Shown: positions 1-53,530, counted from the first letter of the stretch. The stretch: 64,000 nucleotides of DNA from Candidatus Nomurabacteria bacterium (GCA_023898465.1 CP060223.1:928001-992000); one strand, 5' to 3'. The notes: generated by a model from the sequence alone, not told the origin. A program made the numbers and translations.

Positions 1-537
1 AATGGTCATGCCACCTTAATGGCTGAAGCAGCGATTGGAAACGAACCTTTTGTTTTACTCTACCCGGATGACTTAATTGTTTCCAAAAAAAATTCTATCA
101 AGGAAATGATTCAGGTCTACGAGGAATTTCAAGCGCCAGTTATGGGCCTCTTACACGTAGAGAAAAAAGATGTAACAAAGTACGGCATTGCCAAAGTCAA
201 CCACATCCGTGAACATATCTACGAAGTCTCTCAGGTTATTGAGAAGCCAACTCTCGCACAAGCACCTTCTCAGCTCGCCTCATTAAAAGGCTTTGTTTTC
301 CCTCCGATAATTTTTGAATACTTACGCAAAGTACGACGCGGCAAAGATGGAGAAATATGGCTGCCAGATGCCGTAGACCTTTATAACAAAAAACATGCCG
401 TCTTTGGTTGTGAGCTTAATGGTGAAGTATTTGATCTTGGTTCTAAGCTAGGCTGGTTAAAAGCAAATGTTTCTTTTGCGCTTAAGCGACCAGAGCTGCG
501 TAAAGAATTCCGCGCCTATCTCAAAAAATTAGTCTAA
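1..537 (+). CDS. galU: UTP--glucose-1-phosphate uridylyltransferase (GalU-like), C-terminal part; 5' end lies upstream of window
   Basis: Frame is open from base 1. Translation (…GIAKV…EKP…GEIWLPDAVDLY…) matches the C-terminal sugar-nucleotidyltransferase region of GalU-type enzymes, recognised by eye with no search. Confidence 0.5.
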   Translation, partial: NGHATLMAEAAIGNEPFVLLYPDDLIVSKKNSIKEMIQVYEEFQAPVMGLLHVEKKDVTKYGIAKVNHIREHIYEVSQVIEKPTLAQAPSQLASLKGFVFPPIIFEYLRKVRRGKDGEIWLPDAVDLYNKKHAVFGCELNGEVFDLGSKLGWLKANVSFALKRPELRKEFRAYLKKLV

Positions 538-545
538 GGGGGAAC

Positions 546-1937
546 ATGCGACGTTACGTCATTCTCATAGGTATCGTACTCATACCGGTTCTGGCCGTAT
601 TTATTATCGTGTCCGGGGTTATTAATAAACCACAGCCAAATGTACAGGACGTACCATTAACCTTTTGGACAGTACAAGATGACACAAGCGCCTTTACTGA
701 CGTGATCGCAGCATATCAGCAAGCCCACCCCTACATTACCATCGAGGTCGTACAAAAGCGTGCTCAAGATTATGGTGAGGCACTTATTCAAGCATGGGCA
801 CGTGGGGACGGGCCTGATATTTTTTCTCTCCCTAATGCAGAGGTTGGAGAATATGCTGACTTTATTGCCCCATTACCTGAGGCAACACAGGTCTATCAAT
901 ATCAGAACAAACGCGTGCTTCTCAGTAGGCAGCTTGTGATTACACCGGTCACTTCAAGCTCTATCACCCCGGCCCGCCTCAGTAATGACTATGTAGATGT
1001 TATTGCCAGCGATGTTATCCGAGATGGACAAATATATGCACTCCCATTAAGCGTAGACACCTTAGCAGTCTACGTTAATCGCAACCTTCTAAACACTGCT
1101 AATATTGTTTCACCGGCAACAACCTGGCAAGAGCTTATTTCCCAAGTACCTGATCTCACTATTTTTGATGCGCAAAATAATATTATTCAATCTGGGATCG
1201 CACTTGGAACGGCTGAAAATGTTTCCTACTCAGCTGAAATACTCTCACTGCTCATGATGCAAAACGGTACACAAATGACTGACCCAACTGGAACACGTGT
1301 GCAATTTGATCAGGGAACAAAAGAATATAACGCGGGTGAACGAGCTGTTGATTTCTACACCGACTTCTCTGACGAAACAAAAGCAGTCTACAGCTGGTCA
1401 GGGGATAGCTCACACTCAATTGATAGTTTTATCGAAGGTAAGACTGCCTACTTAATTGGCACCTTAGCTGACCAGGCAACAATTCAGGAGCAAAACCCGG
1501 CACTCCGCTATGACATCGTGCCAATGTTCCACATCAATACCGATGGAACCGACACCAGCGGCAGCACGGGAACGCGTACAAAAATTAACTACGCAAAATA
1601 CTGGGTGCAGACAGTGGCAAAAAATTCCGCTCATAGCAATGAGGCTTGGAATTTTGTGCAATACATGAGTCAGTCAGGCGTCGTCGAGGCATATCTCAAC
1701 GCCAGCGGACGTATTTCTCCTCTCCGAAAAATATTAGCACAACAAGTGAATGTGCCGGCCTTACAAGTCTTTGCCAATCAAGCGCTCACTGCGCAAAATT
1801 GGTATCATGGAAACAGCTGGACACAAACTGAAGGCTATCTCAAGCAACTCATCACCGTTGTTGCTGAAAAAACAAAGTTGCCGTTGGAGGCTTTAAGCCA
1901 AGCTGCTAAACAAGTGCAGCTCACCTTTACTGAATAA
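546..1937 (+). CDS. extracellular solute-binding protein (ABC-transporter SBP family-1-like) with N-terminal TM anchor
   Basis: 463 aa with an N-terminal hydrophobic helix (ILIGIVLIPVLAVFIIV). Length and composition (LAVYVNRNLL, TTWQEL, NWYHG) are typical of periplasmic/extracytoplasmic sugar SBPs. SD-like GGGGGAAC lies upstream of ATG 546. Confidence 0.5.
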   Translation: MRRYVILIGIVLIPVLAVFIIVSGVINKPQPNVQDVPLTFWTVQDDTSAFTDVIAAYQQAHPYITIEVVQKRAQDYGEALIQAWARGDGPDIFSLPNAEVGEYADFIAPLPEATQVYQYQNKRVLLSRQLVITPVTSSSITPARLSNDYVDVIASDVIRDGQIYALPLSVDTLAVYVNRNLLNTANIVSPATTWQELISQVPDLTIFDAQNNIIQSGIALGTAENVSYSAEILSLLMMQNGTQMTDPTGTRVQFDQGTKEYNAGERAVDFYTDFSDETKAVYSWSGDSSHSIDSFIEGKTAYLIGTLADQATIQEQNPALRYDIVPMFHINTDGTDTSGSTGTRTKINYAKYWVQTVAKNSAHSNEAWNFVQYMSQSGVVEAYLNASGRISPLRKILAQQVNVPALQVFANQALTAQNWYHGNSWTQTEGYLKQLITVVAEKTKLPLEALSQAAKQVQLTFTE

Positions 1938-1940
1938 CGC

Positions 1941-2924
1941 ATGTTACGTTTACCCTCAACTCGATTCTGGATCATCTCGGGTTTAAGCATGCTTATTGTA
2001 CTTGGCGCAGTAATACCTGCCCGAGCGGAGATCTTACCAAACTGCGAAAAAACACTTTACAAAGTTGAGCTCAATGGAGATCTCGATTGCCCAGATGGAA
2101 CAAACAATTGTATTGATCCAAATGATTACATACAAACTGTACACGGTGATATCGAACAGGTAATGGTCAACCGGAGCTGTGGTTTCAATGACTTCATTCA
2201 GCTCTTTGTGAATCTCGCAAACTGGGGCTTGGCTATTATGGGTGCCCTGGCTGTTTTCTTCTACATGTACGCGGGCTTCCAATTCTTAACTGCCGGCGGT
2301 CGGAGCGAGAATGTCGAGCAGGGTAAAAAAATTCTCTGGGGCACCACTATGGGAGTGATTATCATGCTGACTGCGTGGGCCGTTATTGGTTTCTATATTG
2401 TTGCTACAACTGGCAGTAACCAAGGCTTTGTTTTTCCTAATGATCCTAACTTCCTAGCCCCTTGGTTTGGTCAGACCGAAACTTGTCGACAGACCTATAT
2501 AAAAAATTACGACCAATCTCAGTGTGGACAAAACAATCTTCATATAAACTGTTCAGACCCGATTGATGGAAGCGATGGACCTGTTACTCGTTTGCAAAGC
2601 ATACTTACTCAGCGAGCTTGTAACCCTGGAGGAATAGACGGCTGTTTTGGTTCAAACACTGAAAGTGGGCTCCGACAATTCCAGAGAGTGAATTGGCGCA
2701 GTGGAATTATTGAAGACGGGGTAGTGAATGCCGATGATTGGAGCACCCTACTCAACACTTCTACTGCGTATGATTGTTCAGTCCCGCTAGGTTGCTGCAT
2801 CAATCCTGATGAACCGAGTCTTTGTTATGATCAAATTCCAGAGGCCTACTGTAACCAGAATGGTTGGACCTTCCTACCAGATAGCTGTGCGAGTTACGAC
2901 TTTGACTGTGAAGGACCAAGTTAA
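1941..2924 (+). CDS. VirB2/TrbC-type (T4SS-pilin-like) two-TM core fused to Cys-rich extracellular domain with peptidoglycan-binding-like segment
   Basis: It has a signal peptide. The core FNDFIQLFVNLANWGLAIMG…FQFLTAGGRSENVEQGKKILWG…IMLTAWAVIGFYIV is homologous to the four downstream small paralogs. The C-terminal ~180 aa has >15 Cys and the motif LQSILTQRACNPGGIDGCFGSNTESGLRQFQRVNW, which resembles the PG_binding_1 consensus. Confidence 0.5.
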   Translation: MLRLPSTRFWIISGLSMLIVLGAVIPARAEILPNCEKTLYKVELNGDLDCPDGTNNCIDPNDYIQTVHGDIEQVMVNRSCGFNDFIQLFVNLANWGLAIMGALAVFFYMYAGFQFLTAGGRSENVEQGKKILWGTTMGVIIMLTAWAVIGFYIVATTGSNQGFVFPNDPNFLAPWFGQTETCRQTYIKNYDQSQCGQNNLHINCSDPIDGSDGPVTRLQSILTQRACNPGGIDGCFGSNTESGLRQFQRVNWRSGIIEDGVVNADDWSTLLNTSTAYDCSVPLGCCINPDEPSLCYDQIPEAYCNQNGWTFLPDSCASYDFDCEGPS

Positions 2925-2937
2925 TTTTCTATTGCAT

Positions 2938-3300
2938 ATGAATACACTACGAAAAAAACGCTTACCACTTATTCTCATGATCGCCGGACTCGTCCTCATG
3001 CCGCTGAGCGCCTTTGCGCAAAGCGGCTCGGCTGTAGCCATACCTAACCCGATTTCGTGTGGTAACTTAATTTGTCTCTTTGTAAACCTCATGCGCCTTA
3101 TTCTGGCCGGCTTAGGTGTCTTTGGCATGGTGATGTTTATTTGGGGAGGCTTTCTCATGCTTACTTCTGCGGGTAATGCTGATCGAATTCAAAAAGGAAA
3201 AGAAACCTTAGTGTGGTCAATTCTTGGTATTTTAGTAATTCTCGGCAGTTGGATACTCCTCAAATCAGTGATTGATGCAATTAACGGGGTTACTAACTAG
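2938..3300 (+). CDS. VirB2/TrbC-type T4SS-pilin-like small membrane protein (divergent paralog)
   Basis: ATG at 2938 follows the stop of the previous gene. It has a signal peptide (…PLSAFAQSGS) then two hydrophobic helices separated by the short loop TSAGNADRIQKGKE. The architecture matches the downstream paralogs. Confidence 0.5.
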   Translation: MNTLRKKRLPLILMIAGLVLMPLSAFAQSGSAVAIPNPISCGNLICLFVNLMRLILAGLGVFGMVMFIWGGFLMLTSAGNADRIQKGKETLVWSILGILVILGSWILLKSVIDAINGVTN

Positions 3301-3385
3301 GTTTGACGAAGTAGGAAGAGAGAGGTACGCTATATTCGACATAAGGTGAAGGAACACTTCACAATTGAAAGGGGGTGAGAAACAC

Positions 3386-3751
3386 ATGAAACAACGTACA
3401 CGACTGCTCGGCACACTAGCAGCATTTGCTATACTAGCACTTCCGTTGCTTGTTTCCGCCCAATCTGCTTTCACCGTAGAAAACATCGGTGGATCAGTTG
3501 GTCTCGGTACTGCTGACCTCAAAGATACCGTCATCAACATCATTCAATGGGTGCTTGGTATCCTCGCACTCGTTGCTGTCGTTATGATCATCATTGGTGG
3601 TTTCCAGTGGATGACTGCTGGTGGAAACGACGAAAAGGTGGAAAAGGCCAAGAAGATTATCTCAGCCGCGGTAATTGGTCTTATTATCATCTTGTTGGCT
3701 TGGGCTATTGTCATCTTCGTCGCAAATACAACGGCGAATGTCACTACCTAA
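3386..3751 (+). CDS. VirB2/TrbC-type T4SS-pilin-like protein, tandem copy 1
   Basis: SD AGGGGGTGAG lies 7 nt upstream of ATG 3386. It has a signal peptide (…LLVSAQSA), two TM helices, a WMTAGGNDEKVEKAKK loop and a C-terminal tail ANTTANVTT. Confidence 0.6.
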   Translation: MKQRTRLLGTLAAFAILALPLLVSAQSAFTVENIGGSVGLGTADLKDTVINIIQWVLGILALVAVVMIIIGGFQWMTAGGNDEKVEKAKKIISAAVIGLIIILLAWAIVIFVANTTANVTT

Positions 3752-3777
3752 TCCAATCACGTATTTGGACTTTTAGA

Positions 3778-3811
3778 ACATACCCAGCTCACTGCTGGGT
3801 ATGTTTTTATT
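3778..3811 (+). terminator. rho-independent terminator after pilin copy 1
   Basis: 11-bp stem acatacccagc/gctgggtatgt followed by TTTTTATT. Confidence 0.6.
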
Positions 3812-3836
3812 CAAAAAAGCCTTACTATGCTATAGT
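3807..3836 (+). promoter_or_regulatory. sigma70-like promoter for pilin copy 2 (TTATTC -35, 18-nt spacer, extended -10 TGcTATAGT)
   Basis: Sequence read directly. It sits between the copy-1 terminator and the copy-2 SD. Confidence 0.4.
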
Positions 3837-3873
3837 AGTATATATCTTTGAGAAGAAGAGGGGGTGAATATAC

Positions 3874-4230
3874 ATGAAGAAAGCTTTAATCGCAGTCGGT
3901 ACTTTGGCGCTCGTTGCTATGCCAATGCTTGCATCAGCCCAATCTGCTTTCACCGTTGAAAACGTTGGAGGATCCGTCGGTCTCGGTACCGCTGATTTGA
4001 AGGACACCGTCATCAACATCATTCAATGGGTGCTTGGTATTGTCGCCTTAATCGCTGTCGTTATGATCATCATTGGCGGTTTCCAGTGGATGACTGCTGG
4101 TGGAAACGACGAAAAGGTGGAAAAGGCCAAGAAGATTATATCTTCAGCCGTAGTCGGTTTGATTATTGTGTTACTCGCCTGGGCAATTGTTGTATTCGTT
4201 GCAAACACAACCTCAAACGTTACCGCCTAG
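3874..4230 (+). CDS. VirB2/TrbC-type T4SS-pilin-like protein, tandem copy 2
   Basis: SD GAGGGGGTGA precedes ATG 3874. It is ~85% identical to copy 1 over the mature region, and its tail is ANTTSNVTA. Confidence 0.65.
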   Translation: MKKALIAVGTLALVAMPMLASAQSAFTVENVGGSVGLGTADLKDTVINIIQWVLGIVALIAVVMIIIGGFQWMTAGGNDEKVEKAKKIISSAVVGLIIVLLAWAIVVFVANTTSNVTA

Positions 4231-4251
4231 CGTACACTTCGCAAATTCTGC

Positions 4252-4287
4252 AAAAGCCCTACCTTATACGAGGGCTTTTGCTTTTTC
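4252..4287 (+). terminator. rho-independent terminator after pilin copy 2
   Basis: Stem aaaagccct…agggctttt followed by gcttttt. Confidence 0.5.
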
Positions 4288-4316
4288 TGCGCAACTTTTA
4301 TTTTTCATGGTATACT
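4288..4316 (+). promoter_or_regulatory. extended -10 promoter (TGgTATACT) for pilin copy 3
   Basis: tggtatact at 4308-4316, ~30 nt upstream of the SD. The -35 is weak. Confidence 0.4.
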
Positions 4317-4344
4317 GAATGCATTACATCTTTAGGTAAAGGAG

Positions 4345-4725
4345 GTGAATGTCAGAATGACCATAAAACGATTTCTTCCCTTAGCGCTACTCGGACTTAC
4401 CTTGGTATTACTGCCTTCTACTGTAGCAGCTCAATCAACCGCCTTTACGATCGAAAATATTGGTGGATCAATCGGTCTCGGTACCGCTGATTTGAAGGAC
4501 ACCGTCATCAACATCATTCAATGGGTGCTTGGTATCCTTTCATTAGTAGCCGTTGTTATGATTATTTTTGGTGGCTTTACCTGGATGACTGCCGGAGGTG
4601 CTGAAGATAAAGTTGATCAAGCCAAGCGTATTATCACCGCTGCAGTAATTGGTCTTATCATCATCTTGTTGGCTTGGGCTATTGTCATCTTCGTCGCAAA
4701 TACAACGGCGAACGTTACCACTTAG
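4345..4725 (+). CDS. VirB2/TrbC-type T4SS-pilin-like protein, tandem copy 3 (start may be ATG 4357)
   Basis: SD AAAGGAGG lies upstream. It has the same two-TM architecture, and its C-terminal 30 codons are almost identical at the DNA level to copy 1. Confidence 0.6.
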   Translation: MNVRMTIKRFLPLALLGLTLVLLPSTVAAQSTAFTIENIGGSIGLGTADLKDTVINIIQWVLGILSLVAVVMIIFGGFTWMTAGGAEDKVDQAKRIITAAVIGLIIILLAWAIVIFVANTTANVTT

Positions 4726-4748
4726 GCTACACTAGAATCAAAACACAG

Positions 4749-4781
4749 ACCTCTCCATATTTGGGGAGGTTTTGTGCTTTT
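4749..4781 (+). terminator. rho-independent terminator after pilin copy 3
   Basis: Stem acctctcc/ggggaggt (one G-U wobble) followed by TTTTGTGCTTTT. Confidence 0.5.
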
Positions 4782-4809
4782 GGCTGACTCCGCTACACTA
4801 TGAACGCAT

Positions 4810-6816
4810 ATGTCTAAAATACCGGATAGAACACAGGCCTGGCTGCTAGGAATGATGATCTGTATGATTGTTATCTCTTTTGCAGGTCAATACGTAAAAT
4901 GGCAAAGTCTGGCCTATAACGGACTCGATTTGGGTATTTACACTCAAGTAGTATCAGAAACCAGCCAAGGGAATTTCTTTGGCTTCACCATTCACCCGCA
5001 CTCCTACTTGGGTGACCATGTTGAATTTTTACTATTACTCCTTGTGCCTCTTTTTTGGATTGTGGCTCATCCACTCTGGCTCTTGGCCGCACAAAGCCTT
5101 GTGTTGGCTTTAGGCGCTATCCCTATATTTCGCCTTGCACGCAAAAAACTAAATGGTAACTGGGCTCTAGGTTTAAGTGCAGCCTACCTTTTTTCGCCTT
5201 TCCTCTGGAATGCAAACATGTATGAATTTCACATGTTAGCTTTTGCAATTCCAATCTTACTTGCGGCACTACAAACCTACATCACTAAATCACTCAAGTG
5301 GCATTGGCTTTGGCTGGCTTTGGCCTTGCTCGTACGAGAAGATGTTGCCTTTGTAGTATTTGGCATTGGTATTGTGGCTGCAATTGAGCGGAGGAATTGG
5401 AAATGGTGGCTACCCACCTTTTTGGTTAGCGCTGCCTGGTTTGGATGTAGTATTTATCTCGCTGGATCCTTGGGCACTTTGGGTGAATATAAATTTCTCA
5501 AATACTATGGATGGCTCGGCCCCGATCTTGTTTCTATTATCGGAAACTTTTTTGGACATCCCTGGCTCGTACTCCAACGCGTGCTTCATCCGCAAGCGCT
5601 TGCTTTCTTGCTAGGCCTAGGACTCCCTTTTGCCTATTTGCCAATCTTCCGACTTCGTTGGCTTATCCCGATCTTACCTATCTACTTACAACTTTCTCTC
5701 TCAGGAGTTGCGCGAGAAATCTCACTAGAAATGCACTACGTGAGTTTGTTCTTACCATTTCTCTGGATTGGCTCTATTGAGGCAATACACAAACTTCGTA
5801 GTGAAATGGGAAAAACTCGACGAGGAAAATTTATCCAAGAATACGCCGGGGTTATTGTTAGCGTACTCGCTGTTGTGGCAATATATTGCTTCATCGTAAT
5901 CGGTCCGATTCGCGGCCTGGCACAAACCTGGTATCGACCAGATACGCAACGTGAACATGAACAGTTAGCCAGAGATGTGCTCAACATTGTACCCGATACC
6001 ACACCTCTCGCAACTGGATATCGCTTTATTTCATGGACAGCCACTCGACCCGTGTTGTACTCCTTGCACTATCTTTTTATTGGCCGGCAACAATATAGCG
6101 ATGAAAGTTTCCCACTTGACCCTAGCATCCAAACGCTGCTCATAGACCAAAGTGATTTTGTTACCTATCAATCAGTCTATCCGGAAGATAATACCGACTA
6201 CAAAGGTGGTGCCCAGCGCTTCCGCGATCTCATTGAAGAAAGAAAGCTTCAGCTCAATCTCATGGTTGACGATCTCTTGCTCTATACAAACACCCATACT
6301 ACATCCCAAAAAGAATTAGTGCGTATTGGAAATGAAGATCAACTAAGACAAAGCCTCTTTCAGACAAGCAACGGACTCATCTTGCACTCCTGGGAGAATA
6401 ATGAAGGAATCAACAAACTTCAAAGTGAATATGTGCATATTAACACGCACAACTACCTCACCCTCCCGCTCTCGTTTATCTGGTCTCAGCATGAAATAAC
6501 AACGCGTCATAATACCGTACTACTCACACTGACTCGGGGAGACGGCGCAGTGTATCAAAAAGAATATCCCATCGCCCCGCTCTGGCCGCAATCAGAGTGG
6601 CCATTAGATACTCCAATGATTACGCAACACCAATTTCTCATCCCGACCGACTTCGCCCAAAGTGATACCCAGATAGCAATGGATGTGATGTCGATTCGGG
6701 GTCGATTAAGTTTGGATACCCAACGCTCTATCGTGCCTCGCTACGATGAACACGACTCCTTGGGCCACCTTAATCTCGGAAATCTTATTCTACCGGACGC
6801 AAGCGATACAGAGTAA
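4810..6816 (+). CDS. DUF2079-like polytopic membrane protein (putative GT-C-type glycosyltransferase) with large C-terminal extracytoplasmic domain
   Basis: The N-terminal ~400 aa is multi-TM. The opening (…GLDLGIYTQVV…GDHVEFLLLLLVPLFWI…LLAAQSLVLALGAIPIFRLA) resembles the DUF2079 family signature from memory, and a ~270-aa soluble tail follows. Confidence 0.5.
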   Translation: MSKIPDRTQAWLLGMMICMIVISFAGQYVKWQSLAYNGLDLGIYTQVVSETSQGNFFGFTIHPHSYLGDHVEFLLLLLVPLFWIVAHPLWLLAAQSLVLALGAIPIFRLARKKLNGNWALGLSAAYLFSPFLWNANMYEFHMLAFAIPILLAALQTYITKSLKWHWLWLALALLVREDVAFVVFGIGIVAAIERRNWKWWLPTFLVSAAWFGCSIYLAGSLGTLGEYKFLKYYGWLGPDLVSIIGNFFGHPWLVLQRVLHPQALAFLLGLGLPFAYLPIFRLRWLIPILPIYLQLSLSGVAREISLEMHYVSLFLPFLWIGSIEAIHKLRSEMGKTRRGKFIQEYAGVIVSVLAVVAIYCFIVIGPIRGLAQTWYRPDTQREHEQLARDVLNIVPDTTPLATGYRFISWTATRPVLYSLHYLFIGRQQYSDESFPLDPSIQTLLIDQSDFVTYQSVYPEDNTDYKGGAQRFRDLIEERKLQLNLMVDDLLLYTNTHTTSQKELVRIGNEDQLRQSLFQTSNGLILHSWENNEGINKLQSEYVHINTHNYLTLPLSFIWSQHEITTRHNTVLLTLTRGDGAVYQKEYPIAPLWPQSEWPLDTPMITQHQFLIPTDFAQSDTQIAMDVMSIRGRLSLDTQRSIVPRYDEHDSLGHLNLGNLILPDASDTE

Positions 6817-14487: not shown

Positions 14488-15539
14488 GTTCGATGAAACA
14501 ACAAAGTGAACAGCTCATTCATGCCACCGAGCGAATCTTTCGTGAATGTGTGCAGACAAATGGGGCTATCACTATCTCTCCTGATAGTAAACTGGTAATA
14601 CCTCATCACGCTGCTTTTGTTACTGTGGCAGCACCTTTTGTTGGTTTAGAGCTTGCTCCAGAATTTTTTGCTTGGGTTAAAAAAACTCTAGAGAATGAGG
14701 AGAATAACGGAGCCTTAAGTAATGCCTATGATTGGGAGGGAAAAGCAACCCATTCGCCAGCCCGATTTGCACCCGAACAAAACGGCGCCATGCTCTGGAG
14801 TATTGATGCCTATATTGAACGACATCCAGAGGAGCTGGCTCATATGAAGGAATTAGTAAGCCTGCTCGTGCAAGGAATTACTCAGCACTGGAAAAAAAAT
14901 GGATTTTCGCGTACTACTAATGAGGTATGGGGGGAACATCATCACATAGGAGCGCCTGAGATGAATCAGCGCTTTACATATGCCCTAGCCGCCTGTGCAC
15001 ATGGGCTTGAACGTGCGGCCGCTCGCTATAAGCAACGGCGATGGAAAGCTATTGCCGGGCAAATGCGTGAGCATATAAATAATGCCTGGGATGAAAACAA
15101 AAAGACTTTTCATCGCGCGCTTGGTAAACATAATGATACAAGCATTGATAGTCTAACTCTCGGACTTTGCTGGCCTTATCATATTTACGAGGCAAAAGAG
15201 AAACGCATGCAGGCAGCTGTCGAACGCATTGAAGAGGTGCTTATTGATGGTGGTGGAGTGCACCGCTTCCAATATGATTACCACGACAGCGAAGGGGATG
15301 CAGAAGATGGTGGTGGTATTTGGCCAGCTCTTAATTTTTGGATGAGCATCTATTTTGTTGAACAAGGCGATGAGGCAAAGGCGCGGGCTTACTTCCAATG
15401 GGTATTAGAACGCGTGCATGAAGAACTCCCAGAACAAATGTTTAAAGATTTTCGTATCGGCATTACTCCTTTTGCCTGGAGTCACGCACTCTTTCTCTTG
15501 GCTGCTCATAGTTTAAAACTTCTCCCAAATGAAGCGTAA
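14484..15539 (+). CDS. GH15-family (glucoamylase/glucodextranase-like) (alpha/alpha)6 glycoside hydrolase
   Basis: The composition (…NGAMLWSIDAY…, …GGIWPALNFWMSIYF…) resembles the GH15 catalytic toroid. The family is inferred by eye. Confidence 0.5.
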   Translation: MSSMKQQSEQLIHATERIFRECVQTNGAITISPDSKLVIPHHAAFVTVAAPFVGLELAPEFFAWVKKTLENEENNGALSNAYDWEGKATHSPARFAPEQNGAMLWSIDAYIERHPEELAHMKELVSLLVQGITQHWKKNGFSRTTNEVWGEHHHIGAPEMNQRFTYALAACAHGLERAAARYKQRRWKAIAGQMREHINNAWDENKKTFHRALGKHNDTSIDSLTLGLCWPYHIYEAKEKRMQAAVERIEEVLIDGGGVHRFQYDYHDSEGDAEDGGGIWPALNFWMSIYFVEQGDEAKARAYFQWVLERVHEELPEQMFKDFRIGITPFAWSHALFLLAAHSLKLLPNEA

Positions 15540-17004
15540 ACTTCGCATCATGAACGTAGCTGCAGAAGTGGCTCCCTATGCCAAAACCGGGGGCCTGGCT
15601 GACGTAGTACATGCGCTACCAAAAGAATTAGTACACCAGGGCCATAGCGTCAGTATTATCATGCCCTGCTACGGCTTCATGAAAAAGCAAAATATTCCCA
15701 TGACTGAGGTGGATCGCTTCCGCATTAGTGTGGGGAGTAAAAACTTTGGAGCGACTATCTATCAAACTGAATTTTCACCAGGCTTAACAATCTACTTTGT
15801 TGCCAATCACGAACTCTTTGGTCGTTCGCGACTCTATGGCTACCCAAACGACAACACTCGCTTCATGTTCTTTTGTAAGGCCGTTGTACGCTTTATTAAA
15901 GAAATGAATAACCGGCCTCATGTCGTTCACTGCCATGATTGGCACACCGGGTTAATACCAAACTACCTCAAGCAAAAATTTAATCACGACCCATCTCTCC
16001 GCTCAATCGCAACACTCTACACGATTCACAACCTACCTTTCCAATTCGGATCAGACTGGTGGAAGGTGCCGCCAAAGCAGCAAGATGACGGACGCGGCGT
16101 ACCCCCTGAAACACCGACGAAGAAGTTGAATCGAGTAAACTTTGCCAAACGCGCCTTACTCAACGCCGACATCATCAACACGGTAAGTGAGCGCTATGCT
16201 GAAGAAATCCTCACCCCAGAATTTGGCCAAGACCTTGATGGAATACTCCGACGTCGAGAAGAAGATGTCTACGGCATTGTAAATGGCATTGACTACACCG
16301 TATATAATCCGGTGTATGATAAAAACATCCCGGTAAACTACGACTGGAACCAGCTCGATAAAAAACAGCTCAACAAAAACGCCTTGCAGCGTAAGGTTGG
16401 CCTAGAGCAAAAAGCTGATATCCCGCTCATCGGGGTAGTGAATCGCTTAAGTGAGCAAAAGGGATTTAACCTGCTACGTGAAATTGCCTACGTGCTCGTG
16501 AAGCTGCCTCTGCAGCTCGTTATTGTGGGAAGTGGACATCCGGATTATGTGCGCTTCTTTAAGCGCTTAGCAAAAAAATATCCTAAGCGGATTGGCTTTT
16601 ACTCTCCTTTTACCGAGGAGCTCGCTTCGCTTACCTATGCTGGCTCTGACATGTTCCTCATGCCCTCGCGCTATGAGCCATGTGGAATTTCCCAAATGAT
16701 CAGTTTACGATACGGCTCTATTCCGATTGTCCGAGAAACAGGCGGGCTCTCTGACACTATTACCAATTTCAATCCAAAGACGCAAAAAGGTATTGGCTTT
16801 GTATTTTCTGGATATACCAAGGAAGATTTTCTCATCGCTATTGTCCGAGCCCTCGAAACCTATCGCTATGCACAGGTCTGGGAACACCTCACCTGGCGAG
16901 CTATGAAAACGTCATACTCATGGGAGGTGCCAGCAAAAAAATATGCGCAGTTATATCGCTTAGCTTATCGACATAAACGGGCACGAAAGAAGGGGACAAC
17001 ATAA
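15529..17004 (+). CDS. glgA: glycogen/starch synthase (GT5, GlgA-like), paralog 1
   Basis: AKTGGLADVVHALPKEL… contains the KTGGL motif, with HCHDWHTGL… and a GT-B C-terminal half. Confidence 0.85.
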   Translation: MKRKLRIMNVAAEVAPYAKTGGLADVVHALPKELVHQGHSVSIIMPCYGFMKKQNIPMTEVDRFRISVGSKNFGATIYQTEFSPGLTIYFVANHELFGRSRLYGYPNDNTRFMFFCKAVVRFIKEMNNRPHVVHCHDWHTGLIPNYLKQKFNHDPSLRSIATLYTIHNLPFQFGSDWWKVPPKQQDDGRGVPPETPTKKLNRVNFAKRALLNADIINTVSERYAEEILTPEFGQDLDGILRRREEDVYGIVNGIDYTVYNPVYDKNIPVNYDWNQLDKKQLNKNALQRKVGLEQKADIPLIGVVNRLSEQKGFNLLREIAYVLVKLPLQLVIVGSGHPDYVRFFKRLAKKYPKRIGFYSPFTEELASLTYAGSDMFLMPSRYEPCGISQMISLRYGSIPIVRETGGLSDTITNFNPKTQKGIGFVFSGYTKEDFLIAIVRALETYRYAQVWEHLTWRAMKTSYSWEVPAKKYAQLYRLAYRHKRARKKGTT

Positions 17005-18248
17005 TGCGCTGGGCCGCCCTCCTACATATTTATCAACCTCCGCACTGGGATGCTCGCGTCATTGCTAAAGTAGTGAGTGAAAGCTATCGACCTTTAGTGG
17101 ATATTTTAACGCGAAATCCCAAGATTAAGATTACGCTAAACATCAACGCCTCGTTGACTGAGCAACTTGCTCGACATGGCTACCTCGATGTTATTGATGG
17201 ATTACGCAGCTTGGCTGAACGAGGACAAATTGAATTTACTGGCAGCGCAAAATACCACCCGATTTTACCCCTCCTGCCAGCTGATGAGGTACGTCGTCAA
17301 ATCCGCCTCAACACTGAAACAAACCGAGCTCTCTTTGGTGATATTTATCGCCCACGAGGATTTTTCCCGCCTGAGATGGCAGTCGATCTCGACCTCATCC
17401 GCATCTTAGTGGAAATGGGATTTGAATGGGTAGCAGTTGACGAATTAGCCGGTGAGAAAAAACTTGGCGATCTTCCTTTAAATAAAAAATATTTAGTTGA
17501 GCCTTTTGATATCTCTCTGGTTCTACGCAATCGTTTCATGAGCGACTATCTGGCCTTTGCGGCTCCAATTGATAAGCCAGGTGAATTTTTTGCTGAGGTA
17601 GAAAAAGAAAAACGCTCAAAGGAAATTCTCATCACTGCAATGGATGGAGAAAACCTTGGCCACCACCGTCCAGGCACTGAACGACTATGGGAGGAGTTAG
17701 TAACAAATCCTTCAGTCGAAATGGTCACCTTCACTGAAGCGCTGGAAGGTTTTAGCACGCAGGAAAAACTCATGGTGCAGGAAAGCAGTTGGTCGACTCG
17801 AGCAATTGATCGAGTCCGCAATGCACCTTATCCGCTTTGGCAGCATCCGGAAAATCAACTTCATCAACTACAGTGGTCGCTCACCACGCTCATCATCGAA
17901 GCGATTAACCAAGCAGAGAAGCGAAGTGACCACACCATTGAACAAGCTCGGATTGCTTTAGACGAGGCGCTGTCTTCTGATCAATACTGGTGGGCCTCAG
18001 CCACGCCCTGGTGGAGTGTGGAGATTATTAATGAAGGAGCCGAGCGACTTGGTAAAGTGTTAGAAGCGCTCAGTGAAGTGCCGCCCGCTACGCAGAAAGA
18101 AGCGCGACAGCTCATTCGCTCAATTCGAGAAACTTCACGTCGCTGGCAGGACAAAGGAGTTGCTTCTCAGCGTATGGCTGAATACAACAAAGAAACAAAG
18201 CAAGTACATTACATGGCTGGACAACGCATTGACGGTTCTGCCAAGTGA
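17004..18248 (+). CDS. GH57-family alpha-glucan-active enzyme, paralog 1
   Basis: The five GH57 conserved regions are recognisable: HIYQPP, GQIEFTGSAKYHPILP, GFFPPEMAVD, EWVAVDE and SDQYWWAS. Confidence 0.65.
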   Translation: MRWAALLHIYQPPHWDARVIAKVVSESYRPLVDILTRNPKIKITLNINASLTEQLARHGYLDVIDGLRSLAERGQIEFTGSAKYHPILPLLPADEVRRQIRLNTETNRALFGDIYRPRGFFPPEMAVDLDLIRILVEMGFEWVAVDELAGEKKLGDLPLNKKYLVEPFDISLVLRNRFMSDYLAFAAPIDKPGEFFAEVEKEKRSKEILITAMDGENLGHHRPGTERLWEELVTNPSVEMVTFTEALEGFSTQEKLMVQESSWSTRAIDRVRNAPYPLWQHPENQLHQLQWSLTTLIIEAINQAEKRSDHTIEQARIALDEALSSDQYWWASATPWWSVEIINEGAERLGKVLEALSEVPPATQKEARQLIRSIRETSRRWQDKGVASQRMAEYNKETKQVHYMAGQRIDGSAK

Positions 18249-18304: not shown

Positions 18305-19675
18305 ATGTATTGGGCAAATTTCCTGCATATTTATCAACCACCAACCCAAAAACCATATTGGGTGAAGCGAGTCACTGAAGAGTCGTATCGAAAAATCGTT
18401 GCTGAATTAAAGCGCGCTCCGGGTGCTAAACTCACTCTGAACATTAGCGCGGTGCTTGTTGAATTGCTGGATAAGAATGGATGTGGAGATGTTATTGATG
18501 ACATTCGTCTCTTGCTCGAGCGTGGACAAATTGAATTAACCAGCTCAGCAAAGTTTCATCCATTACTACCAAAGATTCCCAAGGATGAAGTTATTCGACA
18601 AATCCAACTGAACGACGAAACGCATCGTAAATATTTTGGTGAACTCTACAAGCCGAAGGGATTTTTCCCACCTGAGATGGCCTTCTCTACCGATGTGGCA
18701 AAGATCGTAAAAGAGCTGGGCTATGAATGGATCATTGTTGATGAATTATCCTTCTCTCGCGAAATCGGCAATATTGATTACAGCAAGCGCTACACGGTTG
18801 AGGGTCTGGATGATTTTTCCATCTACTTCCGTGAACGGCGCATGAGCTACAAAATCCTTTCCGGACAATTAGGATCCGGCTCGCTTCTTATTCAGAGCCT
18901 GGGTGATCGATTAAAGAAAAATGAATACCTCCTAACTGCAATGGATGGAGAAACTTTCGGCCACCACCGTCCAGGTATGGAGCACCTCCTTTTTGAGATT
19001 TACGAATCAAAGGAACTCGAAACTATCCTTATCTCGGATATCCCAAAACACTTCCCAGAGTCCACGCCGATTGATCCTTTGCCATCCACTTGGGCGCTGA
19101 TGGAAAAAGACCTTGAAAAGAATGCGCCGTTTTCTCGCTGGCTTGATCCAGGTAACACAATTCATGAACGACAATGGGAATTAACCAACCTGGCGATTAA
19201 GGCGGTACATGCAAGCGATCAAAGCGATCCAAAATTTCCTGAGGTGCGGACAGCGCTTGATCGAGCAATTCACTCAGATCAATACTGGTGGGCCTCGGCA
19301 AAACCATGGTGGAGTATGGAAATGATTGAGGCAGGCGCTAAGGAGCTGTCTGATGTGGTATTAAACGCGCCAGGCTCAAGTGAAGAGGAGAAGGAACGAG
19401 CGAAACAGCTCTACCAAGAAATTATCTATACCGGCTTTGACTGGCAGCGATCTGGTTTAGTGGAAAAGCTTTCCCAGCAAGAGGATGAGGAAATACGACA
19501 GCGAACTGATGAAGCTATTCCTGAATTACCTGCTGAAGAAATTGATAAAATTATTGCGAACTTGCGCAAAGATATCGATGATGTGGTGAAGCGAGAAGAA
19601 TACGAGCGAGCAGCTCAATTGCGCAATCGCATTAAAGAACTCGAGCAATATCGAGACAAAAAAAGTAAAGAATAA
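18305..19675 (+). CDS. GH57-family enzyme, paralog 2, with C-terminal UVR-like motif
   Basis: HIYQPP, GQIELTSSAKFHPLLP, GFFPPEMAFS, EWIIVDE and SDQYWWAS. The C-terminal EEYERAAQLRNRIKELEQ matches the UVR (UvrB/UvrC) helix motif. Confidence 0.65.
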   Translation: MYWANFLHIYQPPTQKPYWVKRVTEESYRKIVAELKRAPGAKLTLNISAVLVELLDKNGCGDVIDDIRLLLERGQIELTSSAKFHPLLPKIPKDEVIRQIQLNDETHRKYFGELYKPKGFFPPEMAFSTDVAKIVKELGYEWIIVDELSFSREIGNIDYSKRYTVEGLDDFSIYFRERRMSYKILSGQLGSGSLLIQSLGDRLKKNEYLLTAMDGETFGHHRPGMEHLLFEIYESKELETILISDIPKHFPESTPIDPLPSTWALMEKDLEKNAPFSRWLDPGNTIHERQWELTNLAIKAVHASDQSDPKFPEVRTALDRAIHSDQYWWASAKPWWSMEMIEAGAKELSDVVLNAPGSSEEEKERAKQLYQEIIYTGFDWQRSGLVEKLSQQEDEEIRQRTDEAIPELPAEEIDKIIANLRKDIDDVVKREEYERAAQLRNRIKELEQYRDKKSKE

Positions 19676-19753: not shown

Positions 19754-20677
19754 ATGTCACGACTTTCCGCTGAAAAAGTACACTCACTACTCAAACAAAA
19801 AGCTGTTTTTAAGGCTGAGATTACCCATGTGGTACTTGAGAAACACAAAGCCTTTTCTCATTCCAGTCGACTTGCTCGCTATATCGTGTCTCTGGCAAAT
19901 GGGCAAACAAAATATATCCGAGCAAATGTTTGGCCAATCTCAGCTTTTCGTATTGCAGAAGCGCTCAGCGCACAGCAAAGCTTAAAAGCGCCTCAACCGA
20001 TATACTACGACAAGAGTAGTCACACTATTCTTTACGAGGAACTAAATGGTGACACCCTGCGCAGCGTGCCGCTCACCGCAAAAGCATGGAAGCCCATTAT
20101 TCCTAAGGTTGCTCAACTCCTAGCCGCTTTTCATCAAACGCCACTACCTAAGGGCTTAGCACCTGAGACGCAAAGCGCCGCAAAGAAGCGAAGAAAAAAC
20201 CTTGTCCAAGGAATACAAAAGGCTGATAAGGGATATGGCGCACTAGCGAAAGTTGCGTGTAGCCAGCTCGAGTCACAGATTGCTCGCCAGGCCGGAAAAG
20301 TAAAGGCACTCACCCATGGCGATTTCCAGGCAAGTAATATACTCATCGCAAAAAAGAATCTCTCGCTTATTGACTTCACGCTGAGTCGACCAAATCATCC
20401 AGCCAGCGACCTTGGTCTCTGGTTAGTACATTGGCAGGCTATGACGCGCGATCACCTTAGTCACACACAAAGGGAAGAGTTGGGCTATCTCTTTTTACAG
20501 TACTACTTCTCAGCCGTGCCAAAGGCCTGGCACGCACCTATCCGAGCAATGCTTCCAGTCTATGTGAGCGAGGCCACGCTCGAGGTCGCCGCTACCACCT
20601 TGCTTATGTACGGCGCCCACGATACCAATGTTCGCGCATTACTTGATGAATTATTTTCTAGTTTGCACTATGTCTGA
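19754..20677 (+). CDS. APH/choline-kinase-like phosphotransferase (protein-kinase-like fold); possible sugar (malto)kinase
   Basis: HGDFQASNILIAKKNLSLIDFT…ASDLG contains the Brenner HGDxxxxN motif and a DxxxxxxD-like Mg site. Confidence 0.5.
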   Translation: MSRLSAEKVHSLLKQKAVFKAEITHVVLEKHKAFSHSSRLARYIVSLANGQTKYIRANVWPISAFRIAEALSAQQSLKAPQPIYYDKSSHTILYEELNGDTLRSVPLTAKAWKPIIPKVAQLLAAFHQTPLPKGLAPETQSAAKKRRKNLVQGIQKADKGYGALAKVACSQLESQIARQAGKVKALTHGDFQASNILIAKKNLSLIDFTLSRPNHPASDLGLWLVHWQAMTRDHLSHTQREELGYLFLQYYFSAVPKAWHAPIRAMLPVYVSEATLEVAATTLLMYGAHDTNVRALLDELFSSLHYV

Positions 20678-22130
20678 ACGCATCCTCTTTATCTCAGCCG
20701 AAGTAACACCGCTCGCAAAAGTCGGGGGACTGGCCGATGTGGTTGGCGCCCTACCTCCAGCTCTACGAAAACTGGGAGCTGACGCTCGTATCCTCATGCC
20801 AAAGTATGGCGTGATTGATGAAGAAAAATATCCCATGGAAATACGTGGGCAAGGCATCCCAGTCCAGATTGGACAAGGTACGGTGTATGTCGATCTATGG
20901 GAAACAAAATTACCTAATACTGACACTCCGGTCTATCTCATTGGTAATGACAAATTTTTCGGAGGAAGCCGTATCTATTTTGATGCTTCAGCTTTTGCCA
21001 GCCAGTTTGTGGAATTCGAGCGATTCCTTTTCTTTGCCATGTCGAGCGTGGCCGTGCTTGATGCACTCGAATGGAAGCCTACGATTATTCACTGCCATGA
21101 TTGGCACACCGGATTAATTCCCGCTTTACTCAAGCAGGAGAAGCCTCGCATCGCGACAGTCTTCACCATTCATAACCTAGGCAACCAAGGTAAATGGAAC
21201 ACGCCAGATATTTTCCGCTTCCTAGGTTTGCAAGCGCAGGATCGCGCATCATTTAGCCTGACCGACTCCCAGGGTAATTTTAATTGTTTGCTCCAAGGTG
21301 TAGTGAATGCAGATGCGGTAAATACGGTTAGTCCGAGCTATGCCAAAGAGATTCTCACTGCCGAGTATGGAGAGGGTCTCGAAAAAACACTTCAGCAACA
21401 AGGTGACCGCCTAATGGGAATACTGAATGGGATTGATGTTGAACGCTTTGACCCGAGTCGTAATCCTGACCTACCTGAACATTTCAGTGCGGAGAAGCTT
21501 GAGGGAAAAATACGAGCTAAGGAAGCGCTTCAAAAAGAATGCAATCTCGAAGTAAATAAAGAGGTCCCTCTTTTCAGCTTCATCGGTCGACTCACTGATC
21601 AAAAAGGTATGGACCTGATCGGACAATCAGTTGAACATATTTTGAAGCTTGGTGGTCAGCTGGTTCTACTCGGCAGTGGAATGGATGAATTTGAAAAAAT
21701 TGCCCAGGAAGCGGCGGCAAAATATCCCGGGAAGGTGTACACAAAAATTGGCTTTGACGCAGCACTGGCCCAACGGATATACGCCGGAAGTGACTTTTTC
21801 CTCATGCCCTCAAAATATGAGCCATGCGGACTGGGGCAAATAATTGCCATGCGCTATGGCACTATCCCAGTAGTCCGAGCAACTGGAGGCTTGAAAGATA
21901 CCGTGCCAGACTATACCATGAATAGTGCAGAGGGTAGGGGGTTTGCTTTTACGCCATATGCGGCCAGCGATCTCCAAGATGCTATTACCCGAGCGCATCA
22001 GCTTTATCAAAACCAAACCGAGTTTATTCAACTGCAAAAACGCATCATGGGTATTGACCTCTCCTGGAAGCAATCAGCTCGCCAATACCTTGATCTCTAT
22101 ACCCGCGCCCGACAAGAACAACGACCATGA
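20670..22130 (+). CDS. glgA: glycogen/starch synthase (GT5, GlgA-like), paralog 2
   Basis: MSERILFISAEVTPLAKVGGLADVVGALP…HCHDWHTGL… ATG 20670 overlaps the stop of the kinase gene. Confidence 0.85.
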   Translation: MSERILFISAEVTPLAKVGGLADVVGALPPALRKLGADARILMPKYGVIDEEKYPMEIRGQGIPVQIGQGTVYVDLWETKLPNTDTPVYLIGNDKFFGGSRIYFDASAFASQFVEFERFLFFAMSSVAVLDALEWKPTIIHCHDWHTGLIPALLKQEKPRIATVFTIHNLGNQGKWNTPDIFRFLGLQAQDRASFSLTDSQGNFNCLLQGVVNADAVNTVSPSYAKEILTAEYGEGLEKTLQQQGDRLMGILNGIDVERFDPSRNPDLPEHFSAEKLEGKIRAKEALQKECNLEVNKEVPLFSFIGRLTDQKGMDLIGQSVEHILKLGGQLVLLGSGMDEFEKIAQEAAAKYPGKVYTKIGFDAALAQRIYAGSDFFLMPSKYEPCGLGQIIAMRYGTIPVVRATGGLKDTVPDYTMNSAEGRGFAFTPYAASDLQDAITRAHQLYQNQTEFIQLQKRIMGIDLSWKQSARQYLDLYTRARQEQRP

Positions 22131-25937: not shown

Positions 25938-26894
25938 ATGTCACGGCAAGAAACCTGTCCTCGATGTGTAAAGAAAAACGTTTACGGCGCTCCTCGCCTG
26001 AGAATCACCACTGGAATCACTTGGCTTTGTTACATTGCCTTGTTTACGGCGCTCCTCTGTCTCGCCATTTTCCTGGGAGAGCCAAGCTCTTTCAAGAAGA
26101 GCATTGTGCTCATGTTCATCATCGTTAACGCGGCAACTCTGCTAGGCGCCGCTCACGACCTCCTGATACCCAAGCGGGTTTGGATATGGCGCGATAGAGG
26201 AGACAGTGTACATATTCACAAGGAAGCTCCAACGCTTCCCGACTTCGACTTCTGTGGATTCAAACATCCACTCGTTATGGCCTGGATCAACCGGCCGTGG
26301 CGTCGAGCTGACCTAAGTTGGGGTGCTGACACCTCGGGCATGTGTCTTCCTGAAGTCACTATGTCTTGGACACGCAAACGTCCATACTTCATCGTCACCT
26401 ACCACCAGCTTGGGACGATAACGCAGACTATCCGGATTCGGATAACTGAACCATCCACCATGCTCGACACCCTGAACTGGATTCGCTTCGCACCCAACCC
26501 TTTCAACTTTCAGGCGCACCTCGAGTCGCTAGATAATGAGAGGAGAGTCTCCCATACACTACACGAGCAAACAGAGTGGCTTACCTGGCTCAATGAACTC
26601 GTGTGCGCGCTGTACGTGGCTACCGAGCGACGGCGTACCTCGCTTGGCCAATCTCCTCATGGTCAGTTTGTTCACGCTTATCTCGGCCACCTGCTTGGCT
26701 TCATGCGAGTCCACAACATAACAGGAAGGGAAAGCCCAAACCATGCGGTCCGGGTAGAGGATGAGGCAACACAGATCGCCGACACCATCGCGTCAGCTAA
26801 GCAGGAGGGGGGTAAACACTGGGCAGAACGAGCTGCGGACAAGGTTTGGGAAAACCGAAATCGAGCAGCGCTTGAACCCGTCACTGAGTCGTGA
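25938..26894 (+). CDS. hypothetical two-TM membrane protein (GC-rich island 2)
   Basis: SD GTGGAGGT precedes ATG 25938. It has two N-terminal TM helices then a ~230-aa soluble domain, with no recognisable family. Confidence 0.45.
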   Translation: MSRQETCPRCVKKNVYGAPRLRITTGITWLCYIALFTALLCLAIFLGEPSSFKKSIVLMFIIVNAATLLGAAHDLLIPKRVWIWRDRGDSVHIHKEAPTLPDFDFCGFKHPLVMAWINRPWRRADLSWGADTSGMCLPEVTMSWTRKRPYFIVTYHQLGTITQTIRIRITEPSTMLDTLNWIRFAPNPFNFQAHLESLDNERRVSHTLHEQTEWLTWLNELVCALYVATERRRTSLGQSPHGQFVHAYLGHLLGFMRVHNITGRESPNHAVRVEDEATQIADTIASAKQEGGKHWAERAADKVWENRNRAALEPVTES

Positions 26895-26937
26895 CAATTC
26901 TACGCGCCCTGATCTCTAGGAGATTGGGGCGCTTTTT
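26882..26937 (+). terminator. terminator cassette B1 (13-bp stem GCGCCCTGATCTC/GAGATTGGGGCGC then UUUUU), ~54-bp repeat
   Basis: It starts at the stop codon of the upstream gene and is ≥90% identical to 27936-27988. Confidence 0.6.
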
Positions 26938-27935: not shown

Positions 27936-27988
27936 ACTTCTCAGTGACAATCCTACGCGCCCTGATCTCTAGGAGATTGGGGCGCTTT
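27936..27988 (+). terminator. terminator cassette B2 (paralog of B1)
   Basis: cacttctcagtgacaatcctacgcgccctgatctctaggagattggggcgcttt. Confidence 0.6.
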
Positions 27989-38793: not shown

Positions 38794-38851
38794 GCAGTAG
38801 CCCCCAGGTTCCGTTCTCCTCCTGAAGCGTGTATACTTGAGAGGCTGTATT

Positions 38852-49336: not shown

Positions 49337-49528
49337 CCGCCGGATCCGTTTTTTAAGCCTGTTCGTATATCACCCCCATGGTTGCGATCTGTGAAAGAAC
49401 GTCCTGTTTGGTCGATAAAGTAGCACAGCGCCAGCTAGAGTCAAGTTGTCCTTCACTTGACGGAGAAAGACGTTTTTAGATATAGTGCACGTAGACAGAT
49501 TTTGGTGGCTCTCAAACGGGAGTCACCT

Positions 49529-51655: not shown

Positions 51656-51661
51656 AAATAC

Positions 51662-51690
51662 TTGCCGTAAAGGAAAAAATATGCTATACT
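51662..51690 (+). promoter_or_regulatory. sigma70-type promoter TTGCCG-17-TATACT upstream of beta-helix protein gene
   Basis: cttgccgtaaaggaaaaaatatgctatact read directly. Confidence 0.45.
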
Positions 51691-51702
51691 TCCCTTACAA
51701 AA

Positions 51703-53529: not shown

Positions 53530-53530
53530 T

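Follow-up and report, generated by a model that had tools for sequence, protein, structure and literature searches.

A chromosomal array of VirB2-like pilin genes in a Patescibacteria genome, with a conserved upstream module and a three-way gene-conversion mosaic

Tandem VirB2-like pilin genes are known in the Patescibacteria from Southlakia epibionticum ML1, in which six pilins of family PF18895 (SEML1_0014–0019) are encoded beside a VirB4/VirB6/PrgI cluster, all six being essential for epibiotic growth by transposon sequencing (PMC10633639). A phylum-wide survey, based on PF18895 and PF04956 detection, describes 441 arrays of 2–11 pilin genes in 383 Patescibacteria assemblies, with a mean within-array identity of 25% and a maximum of 54% (PMC12102498). 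A 2025 review regards the type IV secretion systems (T4SSs) of Patescibacteria as alone among those of monoderms in having potential pili. Described here is an array of five consecutive pilin-like genes, g1 to g5, at positions 1941–4725 of a 64,000-nucleotide (nt) stretch of DNA (GCA_023898465.1, CP060223.1:928001–992000), referred to here as the window, from a metagenome-assembled genome (MAG) labelled ‘Candidatus Nomurabacteria bacterium’. The kind of locus is already described, VirB2-like pilin arrays being typical of ultra-small Patescibacteria. We lean, with confidence little better than even, towards reading this one as the chromosomal structural-subunit operon of a Patescibacteria VirB2-like (PF18895) system whose VirB4-type assembly complex has its genes at another place in the genome.

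An earlier, sequence-only reading of this DNA had proposed that five consecutive plus-strand genes encode signal-peptide proteins of VirB2/TrbC type, and both the gene calls and the membership in the T4SS-pilin superfamily hold. In searches with Pfam profile hidden Markov models, all five proteins exceed the gathering cut-off of PF18895 (T4SS_pilin; 26.6 bits):

1941–2924, plus strand: g1, a ‘long’ pilin of 327 amino acids (aa); PF18895, 29.7 bits
2938–3300, plus strand: g2, a short, divergent, minor-type pilin of 120 aa; PF18895, 32.1 bits
3386–3751, plus strand: g3, major-type pilin copy 1, 121 aa; PF18895, 55.8 bits
3874–4230, plus strand: g4, major-type pilin copy 2, 118 aa; PF18895, 58.1 bits
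4357–4725, plus strand: g5, major-type pilin copy 3, 122 aa; PF18895, 47.6 bits

A second profile, NF045849 (Mbov_0395 pilin-like conjugal transfer protein; cut-off 40 bits), is passed by g4 (41.5 bits) and gives 39.5 bits for g3, 32.2 for g2, 30.2 for g5 and 14.8 for g1. The family is large, comprising 77,963 clusters at 50% identity (E ≤ 1e-3), and homologues often match PF18895 and PF04956 (TrbC/VirB2; cut-off 27.9 bits) together. The assignment of the five proteins as putative pilins rests on the PF18895 and NF045849 profiles, on sub-threshold PF04956 matches and on the linkage of the family to T4SSs in Saccharibacteria. The products of g3, g4 and g5 are identical to the NCBI proteins H6760_04660 (P0003), H6760_04665 (P0001) and H6760_04670 (P0043), respectively. 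The real start of g5 is the ATG at 4357, which is preceded by the Shine–Dalgarno (SD) sequence GGAGGTGA; a GTG at 4345 falls inside that SD sequence.

All five proteins begin with a Sec-type signal peptide whose cleavage site reads A-x-A↓Q (LASA↓QS is one instance); in the alignment, two hydrophobic helices come next, on either side of a short, basic, Lys-rich loop. The loop sequence first quoted for the array, WMTAGGNDEKVEKAKK, is exact in g3 and g4; g5 has WMTAGGAEDKVDQAKR instead, and g1 and g2 diverge further. In the AlphaFold2 model of g4, helices span residues 2–21, 42–73 and 79–117, with a predicted local distance difference test score (pLDDT) of 88–95 over the hairpin. In signal peptide, paired hydrophobic helices, short basic loop and small size, the proteins are similar to Agrobacterium VirB2, TrbC and TraA; they differ from the VirB2 T-pilin in having a short ordinary signal peptide and not a long leader, in their monoderm host and in having no adjacent virB operon, and they show no evidence of cyclisation or acetylation. 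Two other kinds of pilus were ruled out: type IV pili assembled by PilB, as the N-termini lack the prepilin-peptidase site G↓F/M-x-x-x-E, and sortase pili, as LPXTG is absent. None of the five proteins matched the Pfam type IV pilin family (N_methyl).

After the signal peptide of g1 come a Cys-rich extracytoplasmic N-terminal segment, the T4SS_pilin hairpin (residues 91–151) and a Cys-rich extracytoplasmic C-terminal domain with a PG_binding_1 peptidoglycan-binding region (residues 214–265; PF01471, 27.1 bits). The AlphaFold2 model of g1 has a pLDDT of 61 and, in Foldseek, weak matches to peptidoglycan-binding domains only; the lone match of any of the pilins to a pilin fold, itself weak, is that of g1 to the Aeropyrum conjugation pilus (8dfu, E = 3.6). 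Searching the PDB by sequence with the family profile gave no significant match. The second pilin, g2, is 27% identical to g4, and a g2-type gene occupies the same position in related loci.

The published definition of an array, at least two PF18895/PF04956 genes in tandem or one gene apart, describes the locus, with its five consecutive genes, and the surveyed arrays resemble it in being chromosomal and often apart from virB4, ABY1 included (PMC12102498). The identity of g1 and g2 to other array members, 27–37%, lies inside the published divergent range, whereas the g3, g4 and g5 proteins are 68–82% identical over their full length and 76–91% in the mature part, against the published maximum of 54%; identity at this level appears to be new. 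In related arrays, the major copies typically share 72–90% identity within an array, likewise more than that maximum, and in the mature region g3–g5 and many related arrays reach 72–91%.

Unusual sizes occur elsewhere in the family. Many members are giants of 1,900–2,700 aa that carry one N-terminal pilin hairpin (for example, L051:9962–17278 and L071:9845–16615; proteins P0297–P0396), and predicted multi-hairpin polypeptides contain 2–17 pilin hairpins (for example, P0253, 1,775 aa with 17 stretches), which may be fusions or gene-calling artefacts.

The source MAG belongs to the Patescibacteria (about 1.08 Mb; contig of 1,082,586 bp, locus tags H6760_). All close homologues are from Patescibacteria and are mostly labelled Kerfeldbacteria, and these lineages are placed in GTDB class ABY1 in the T4SS survey (PMC12102498). 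The window is core chromosome, containing dnaN–dnaA and rnpA–yidC at 32.4–36.9 kb along with valS, tyrS, polA and uvrB. A mobile-element origin of the array was rejected, as a pilin query against viral contigs and plasmids found no relatives.

Preceding the pilin genes, and conserved with them, are two genes for proteins of other families:

19–537, plus strand: 3′ portion of a gene of the NTP_transferase family (PF00483, E = 1.5e-8; sugar-1-phosphate nucleotidylyltransferase type), first gene of the module
546–1937, plus strand: membrane-anchored, extracellular, carbohydrate-type solute-binding protein (SBP) of family SBP_bac_1 (PF01547, E = 1.6e-17), ending 3 nt 5′ of g1

At its N terminus the SBP carries a hydrophobic membrane helix; a lipobox Cys is absent. 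Its nearest solved relatives are sugar-, maltose- and oligosaccharide-binding proteins; no ABC permease or ATPase gene lies beside it in the window neighbourhood or in related loci. Scanning one genome per species gave 80 related loci, in which a major-pilin profile detected 1–11 pilin genes per locus. The closer relatives match the window in having a long first pilin (256–666 aa), a short divergent pilin and 1–3 major copies; among 43 long first pilins, 40 match PF18895 and 16 match PG_binding_1. Of the 52 arrays with enough upstream sequence, 46 have an SBP homologue that ends no more than 300 nt 5′ of their first pilin gene, as against none of 17 lone-pilin loci, and 49 related loci have an NTP-transferase gene 5′ of the SBP gene. 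This linkage persists at 30–40% SBP identity, where other neighbours have changed, and reciprocal look-up in other ABY1 lineages, with Falkowbacteria, Uhrbacteria and Kuenenbacteria SBP homologues as starting points, found PF18895 genes downstream in three of three cases. The order NTP-transferase, SBP, long pilin, minor pilin and one to three major pilins constitutes a conserved ABY1 operon that appears to be new: no mention of a linkage between SBP or NTP-transferase genes and pilins was found in the searchable literature, and the accessible part of PMC12102498 mentions neither this linkage nor a peptidoglycan-binding first pilin nor gene conversion.

With the Southlakia array the locus shares PF18895, tandem short signal-peptide pilins, the presence of several paralogs and a location on a Patescibacteria chromosome. 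The Southlakia array adjoins VirB4/VirB6/PrgI genes, whereas the window array has no T4SS gene in 64 kb; the Southlakia pilins are divergent in sequence and individually essential, whereas g3–g5 are close in sequence and carry conversion tracts; and the operon with SBP and NTP-transferase genes sets the window array apart. The Mbov_0395 proteins (NF045849) of Mycoplasma integrative and conjugative elements (ICEs) are likewise pilin-like hairpin proteins from hosts that are wall-less or monoderm. Those are encoded inside mobile conjugative elements, unlike the core-chromosomal window locus.

Expression signals divide the locus in two. The intergenic gaps measure 8 nt between the NTP-transferase and SBP genes, 3 nt between SBP and g1 and 13 nt between g1 and g2; no terminator lies within this unit, and no stable hairpin follows g2 at 3301–3360. 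Neither g1 nor g2 has a convincing SD sequence. Strong SD sequences stand only ahead of g3–g5 (GGGGGTGA for g3, at about 3372–3379, and for g4; the sequence given above for g5), and each of these genes is followed by an intrinsic terminator, a stable stem-loop with a U-tract:

3775–3815, plus strand: terminator after g3, a 14-bp stem then UUUUUAUU; −26.7 kcal/mol, z = −6.8
4250–4290, plus strand: terminator after g4, hairpin then CUUUUUCU; −19.4 kcal/mol, z = −4.8
4747–4782, plus strand: terminator after g5, from the terminator scan; −24.1 kcal/mol, z = −4.1

The sequence-only reading had credited each of the three copies with its own SD sequence, extended −10 promoter and terminator. The SD sequences and terminators are there for all three; a TGn-extended −10-like element is found for g4 (TGCTATAGT) and g5 (TGGTATACT), and that of g3 lacks TGn (CGCTATATT). 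As the promoter scan overall performed at chance (7 found against 6.2 expected), the promoters are predicted at the level of consensus. The suggestion that g3–g5 are independently expressed subunits agrees with the strong SD sequence and separate terminator of each, and the layout fits one operon of putative low-abundance components followed by separately terminated, probably highly translated major-subunit genes. An Rfam scan of the window found no RNA family, including no riboswitch or leader ahead of the pilins.

A Pfam scan covered every open reading frame (ORF) of at least 110 aa in the window. No VirB4, VirD4, VirB6 or PrgI was found among them, and the sole secretion ATPase is of PilB/T2SSE type (38837–40561), 34 kb from the array, in agreement with the sequence-only reading. 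The further claim that the ‘orphan’ array is independent of a conjugation-type machine is not supported: arrays are common in the phylum and three relatives are VirB4-positive, and, since published arrays are often apart from virB4, one without T4SS neighbours is not unusual for Patescibacteria. By analogy with these relatives, ‘orphan’ most likely means that the machinery is encoded elsewhere, that is, a scattered gene organisation and not a new machine. According to the survey, VirB4 occurs in 2,407 of about 3,035 Patescibacteria assemblies (about 80%), and VirB2-like pilins occur in 1,948 VirB4-positive assemblies, in 1,135 of them near virB4 (PMC12102498). The sampled part of its Table S1 gives VirB4 in 7 of 9 Kerfeldbacteria MAGs and in 19 of 29 ABY1 draft MAGs, and the genomes of three related loci (L046, L059 and L065) are listed in the survey table as ABY1 and VirB4-positive (PMC12102498). 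These three loci hold SBP-linked arrays of 8–11 pilin genes, and VirB4 is absent from the 10 kb around them. According to the same survey, the virB4 loci of ABY1 tend to neighbour comF, recG and radA (PMC12102498), and no VirB4, RecG or RadA was found in the 1.3 Mb of ABY1 DNA examined.

If the array is the subunit operon of a VirB2-like system, Sec/YidC would place its pilins in the membrane, and a VirB4-type ATPase complex with genes elsewhere in the genome would pull them out again and polymerise them, giving a filament or a conduit that spans the wall, an assembly route modelled on the presumed working of the Southlakia epibionticum system. The bulk subunit would be formed by g3–g5; g1, which binds the wall, and g2 would be minor or base components of low abundance, and the SBP a conserved partner in the pilin system. 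The major copies are old duplicates held near-identical in protein by purifying selection, and occasional short non-reciprocal recombination of the tandem copies (64–86 nt) produced the three-way mosaic described below, which we read as a by-product of tandem repetition and not a programmed variation device.

Several observations weigh against this reading. Direct homology to VirB2 is weak: the best PF04956 score, that of g3 (24.0 bits, E = 4.5e-5), is under the cut-off, g2 reaches 17.7 bits, and g1, g4 and g5 have no match. In hhalign, the family profile aligns with Agrobacterium VirB2 in register near G-x-x-W-M, with a probability of 3.9%; the VirB2 query is 99.2% identical to annotated virB2 genes. 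Fold searches with the g4 model returned generic helical hairpins only, a result uninformative for such a fold. The literature found states no visualisation of a PF18895 filament in any organism. None of 85 related loci has a VirB4-type P-loop ORF within 10 kb, and the only conserved partners of the array, the SBP and the NTP-transferase, are neither of them known T4SS components. A VirB4 elsewhere in this 1.08 Mb genome, although the most likely situation, is presumed from relatives.

The absence of VirB4-like genes from the surroundings of those 85 loci is also what would be expected of a T4SS-independent envelope structure, in which a self-contained NTP-transferase/SBP/pilin module builds a surface filament, sheath or wall array, anchored by g1 and with the SBP as partner. 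The linkage of SBP and NTP-transferase genes to arrays and not to lone pilins, seen again in the reciprocal look-up, points the same way, as do the peptidoglycan-binding domain of g1 and the many family members joined to giant extracellular proteins (as in L051 and L071). We nevertheless consider such a structure unlikely. VirB2-like pilins are not known to assemble independently of VirB4; most Patescibacteria have VirB4, as do all three checkable array-bearing genomes; and conserved gene order in reduced, syntenic genomes is insufficient proof of joint function. An elaborated form, which we hold to be quite improbable, would have the ABY1 operon build a VirB4-independent, peptidoglycan-anchored filament or conduit of which the SBP is an integral part, for example as a glycan-sensing or glycan-capturing tip or base, and the major subunit might be glycosylated at its conserved C-terminal NVT by the adjacent polytopic glycosyltransferase-like proteins.

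The C-termini of g3–g5 (3717–3748, 4196–4227 and 4691–4722) share a conserved FVAxTTxNVT motif. An NxS/T sequon lies within the last 14 residues in 50 of 66 major-type copies and in 25 of 194 other short pilins, and the exposed C-terminal tail of the major pilins may be glycosylated. Directly downstream of the array begins a run of genes for membrane proteins:

4810–6816, plus strand: DUF2079 polytopic membrane protein (PF09852, E = 1.3e-58), directly 3′ of the array

Between 4810 and 12041, this gene is accompanied by three genes for polytopic membrane proteins that have no annotation and one for a GT2 glycosyltransferase. A DUF2079 gene is found downstream of the array in 39 loci and is conserved in closer relatives only; orthologues of some of the polytopic proteins have weak MptA_B, GT87 or PMT_2 matches.

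Such a sugar- and envelope-rich neighbourhood, from the NTP_transferase and SBP to the DUF2079, GT2 and weakly matched glycosyltransferase-like proteins, leaves room for a role other than that of a pilus, in which the small hairpin membrane proteins would work with the SBP, the NTP-transferase, the polytopic proteins and GT2 in handling carbohydrates or glycosylating the envelope, and ‘pilin’ would be no more than the name of their family. The C-terminal motif, conserved in 50 of 66 major copies, would suit this role, and fold searches cannot separate a pilin hairpin from other two-helix hairpins. We think it very unlikely: the SBP has no ABC permease or ATPase gene, the high-expression signals and multiple copies fit a bulk structural subunit, the family is tied to T4SS clusters in Saccharibacteria and, by NCBIfam naming, to Mycoplasma ICEs, and the downstream glycosyltransferase-like genes are conserved in closer relatives only.

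The major copies themselves form a mosaic at the DNA level, in which each pair shares one tract:

3575–3660 = 4054–4139, plus strand: g3/g4 conversion tract, 86 nt with one mismatch; identical run of 62 nt
3671–3738 = 4645–4712, plus strand: g3/g5 conversion tract, 68 nt with one mismatch; identical run of 53 nt
3977–4040 = 4472–4535, plus strand: g4/g5 conversion tract, 64 nt, identical

The last 35 nt of the g4/g5 tract are present in all three copies (also at 3527–3561). The two likenesses noted in the sequence-only reading, a run of more than 60 identical nt between the second and third major copies and a near-identical 3′ part of the first and third, correspond to the 64-nt and 68-nt tracts. 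The 88 informative sites fall in long blocks (permutation p < 5e-5 for each pair), and the clustering persists at synonymous codons alone (p = 0.003, 0.003 and 0.0002 for the three pairs), so that constraint at the protein level cannot explain the mosaic. Outside the tracts, third positions are 46–63% identical and the number of synonymous substitutions per site (dS) is 0.8–1.5. The three genes are old tandem paralogs with a three-way conversion mosaic, a result that is statistically solid. The homogenisation by gene conversion that had been proposed is real in the sense that the tracts are significant in the DNA alignment of the copies; it is patchy and not gene-wide. Selection on g3–g5 is purifying, with a ratio of nonsynonymous to synonymous substitution (dN/dS) of 0.08–0.11.

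Across species, conversion is recurrent but sporadic, clustering at synonymous codons being significant in 3 of about 20 multi-copy arrays (the window, L004 with an 88-nt run and L009 with a 90-nt run). Among relatives, conservation between species is highest (up to 99%) for the copy that adjoins the downstream gene, and upstream copies are often closest to a paralog of their own array, as is the case for 15 of 43 copies.

Tandem pilin genes with recombination between them invite comparison with systems of surface variation. Bartonella and Anaplasma phagocytophilum also have tandem virB2 copies, which are discussed as a source of surface variation; their arrays are thought to diversify, whereas the window copies are under purifying selection and recombination raises their likeness over the tracts. 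In Neisseria pilE/pilS, short non-reciprocal transfers between pilin genes likewise produce mosaics. That system involves an unrelated type IV pilin with one expressed locus, silent promoterless donors and a G-quadruplex (G4)/RecA pathway, whereas g3–g5 are all complete, have their own expression signals and show neither silent donors nor diversifying selection. The survey speculates that arrays of VirB2 paralogs help their bearers to adapt to different hosts (PMC12102498). Programmed antigenic or phase variation, in which recombination among g3–g5 would yield pilin variants altering the surface or host range, was part of the sequence-only reading and could call on that speculation, on the three-way mosaic and on a major copy number that varies from one to three between species, yet it is the least probable of the explanations and highly unlikely, as the purifying selection argues against antigenic variation, the mature proteins are nearly the same and differ by conservative changes, every copy has an SD sequence, start codon and terminator so that there are no promoterless silent cassettes, window scans found no invertible promoter or recombinase nearby, conversion is significant in few of the multi-copy arrays, and a second sampling of the strain is uninformative within the array.

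That second sampling is Logan contig L086 (SRR12358676), which is 100% identical to window positions 1–3556 and extends the window 2 kb leftward with genes for a bactofilin, a diacylglycerol kinase and the full NTP-transferase (293 aa). It ends at position 3556, inside the 35-nt block common to g3, g4 and g5, and, ending there, is uninformative as to how the array itself might vary. Short-read assemblies break at near-identical pilin copies, and draft MAGs therefore probably under-count such arrays. The 35-mer shared by the three major copies, sought in JGI metagenomes for strain variants, had no exact match.

The remainder of the window contains other features. GC skew is negative to about 40 kb and positive past 44 kb, which places the likely origin about 30 kb from the pilin array; as the array is on the plus strand to the left of this likely origin, its transcription would be head-on to replication. 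The Pfam scan also identified genes for a class A penicillin-binding protein and glycogen metabolism, besides the PilB-type ATPase. The glycogen genes form paralogous pairs between 15529 and 22130 (Glyco_transf_5 synthases at 15529–17004 and 20628–22130; GH57 at 17004–18248 and 18305–19675), with common stretches of 45–65 nt that are 80–84% identical. Bracketing an ORF at 27101–27931 (276 aa, no Pfam match; local GC 0.52 against about 0.46 elsewhere) is a 45-nt direct repeat (26891–26935 and 27944–27988; 98% identical) that forms a GC-rich hairpin (GCGCCC...GGGGCGC) and could be a duplicated terminator or mark a small inserted cassette. ARAGORN called an 85-nt tRNA-Met at 38578–38662, inside the 3′ end of a DHH-family ORF (37642–38793); the call is doubtful, and Rfam reported no tRNA there or elsewhere in the window at the gathering threshold. 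Three large predicted surface proteins are encoded at 49457–55024, one with LTD and PKD domains (49457–51655), one of 639 aa with a choice-of-anchor Q and a weak beta-helix match (51610–53529) and one with FG-GAP and fn3 domains (53531–55024); they are candidate epibiont adhesins.

Current views are not overturned by this locus. If the VirB4-independent filament considered above were real, it would put the VirB2 fold to a new use, one outside type IV secretion. A large share of bacterial diversity belongs to the Patescibacteria, which are apparently host-attached, and their VirB2-like pilins proved essential in the single species in which this has been examined. For the study of these pilins, the locus offers several handles: a testable partner set, the SBP and NTP-transferase, upstream of ABY1 arrays; a predicted division of the subunits into a wall-binding type, a minor type and a major type with high expression; and a major-subunit gene present in one to three near-identical copies that exchange DNA.

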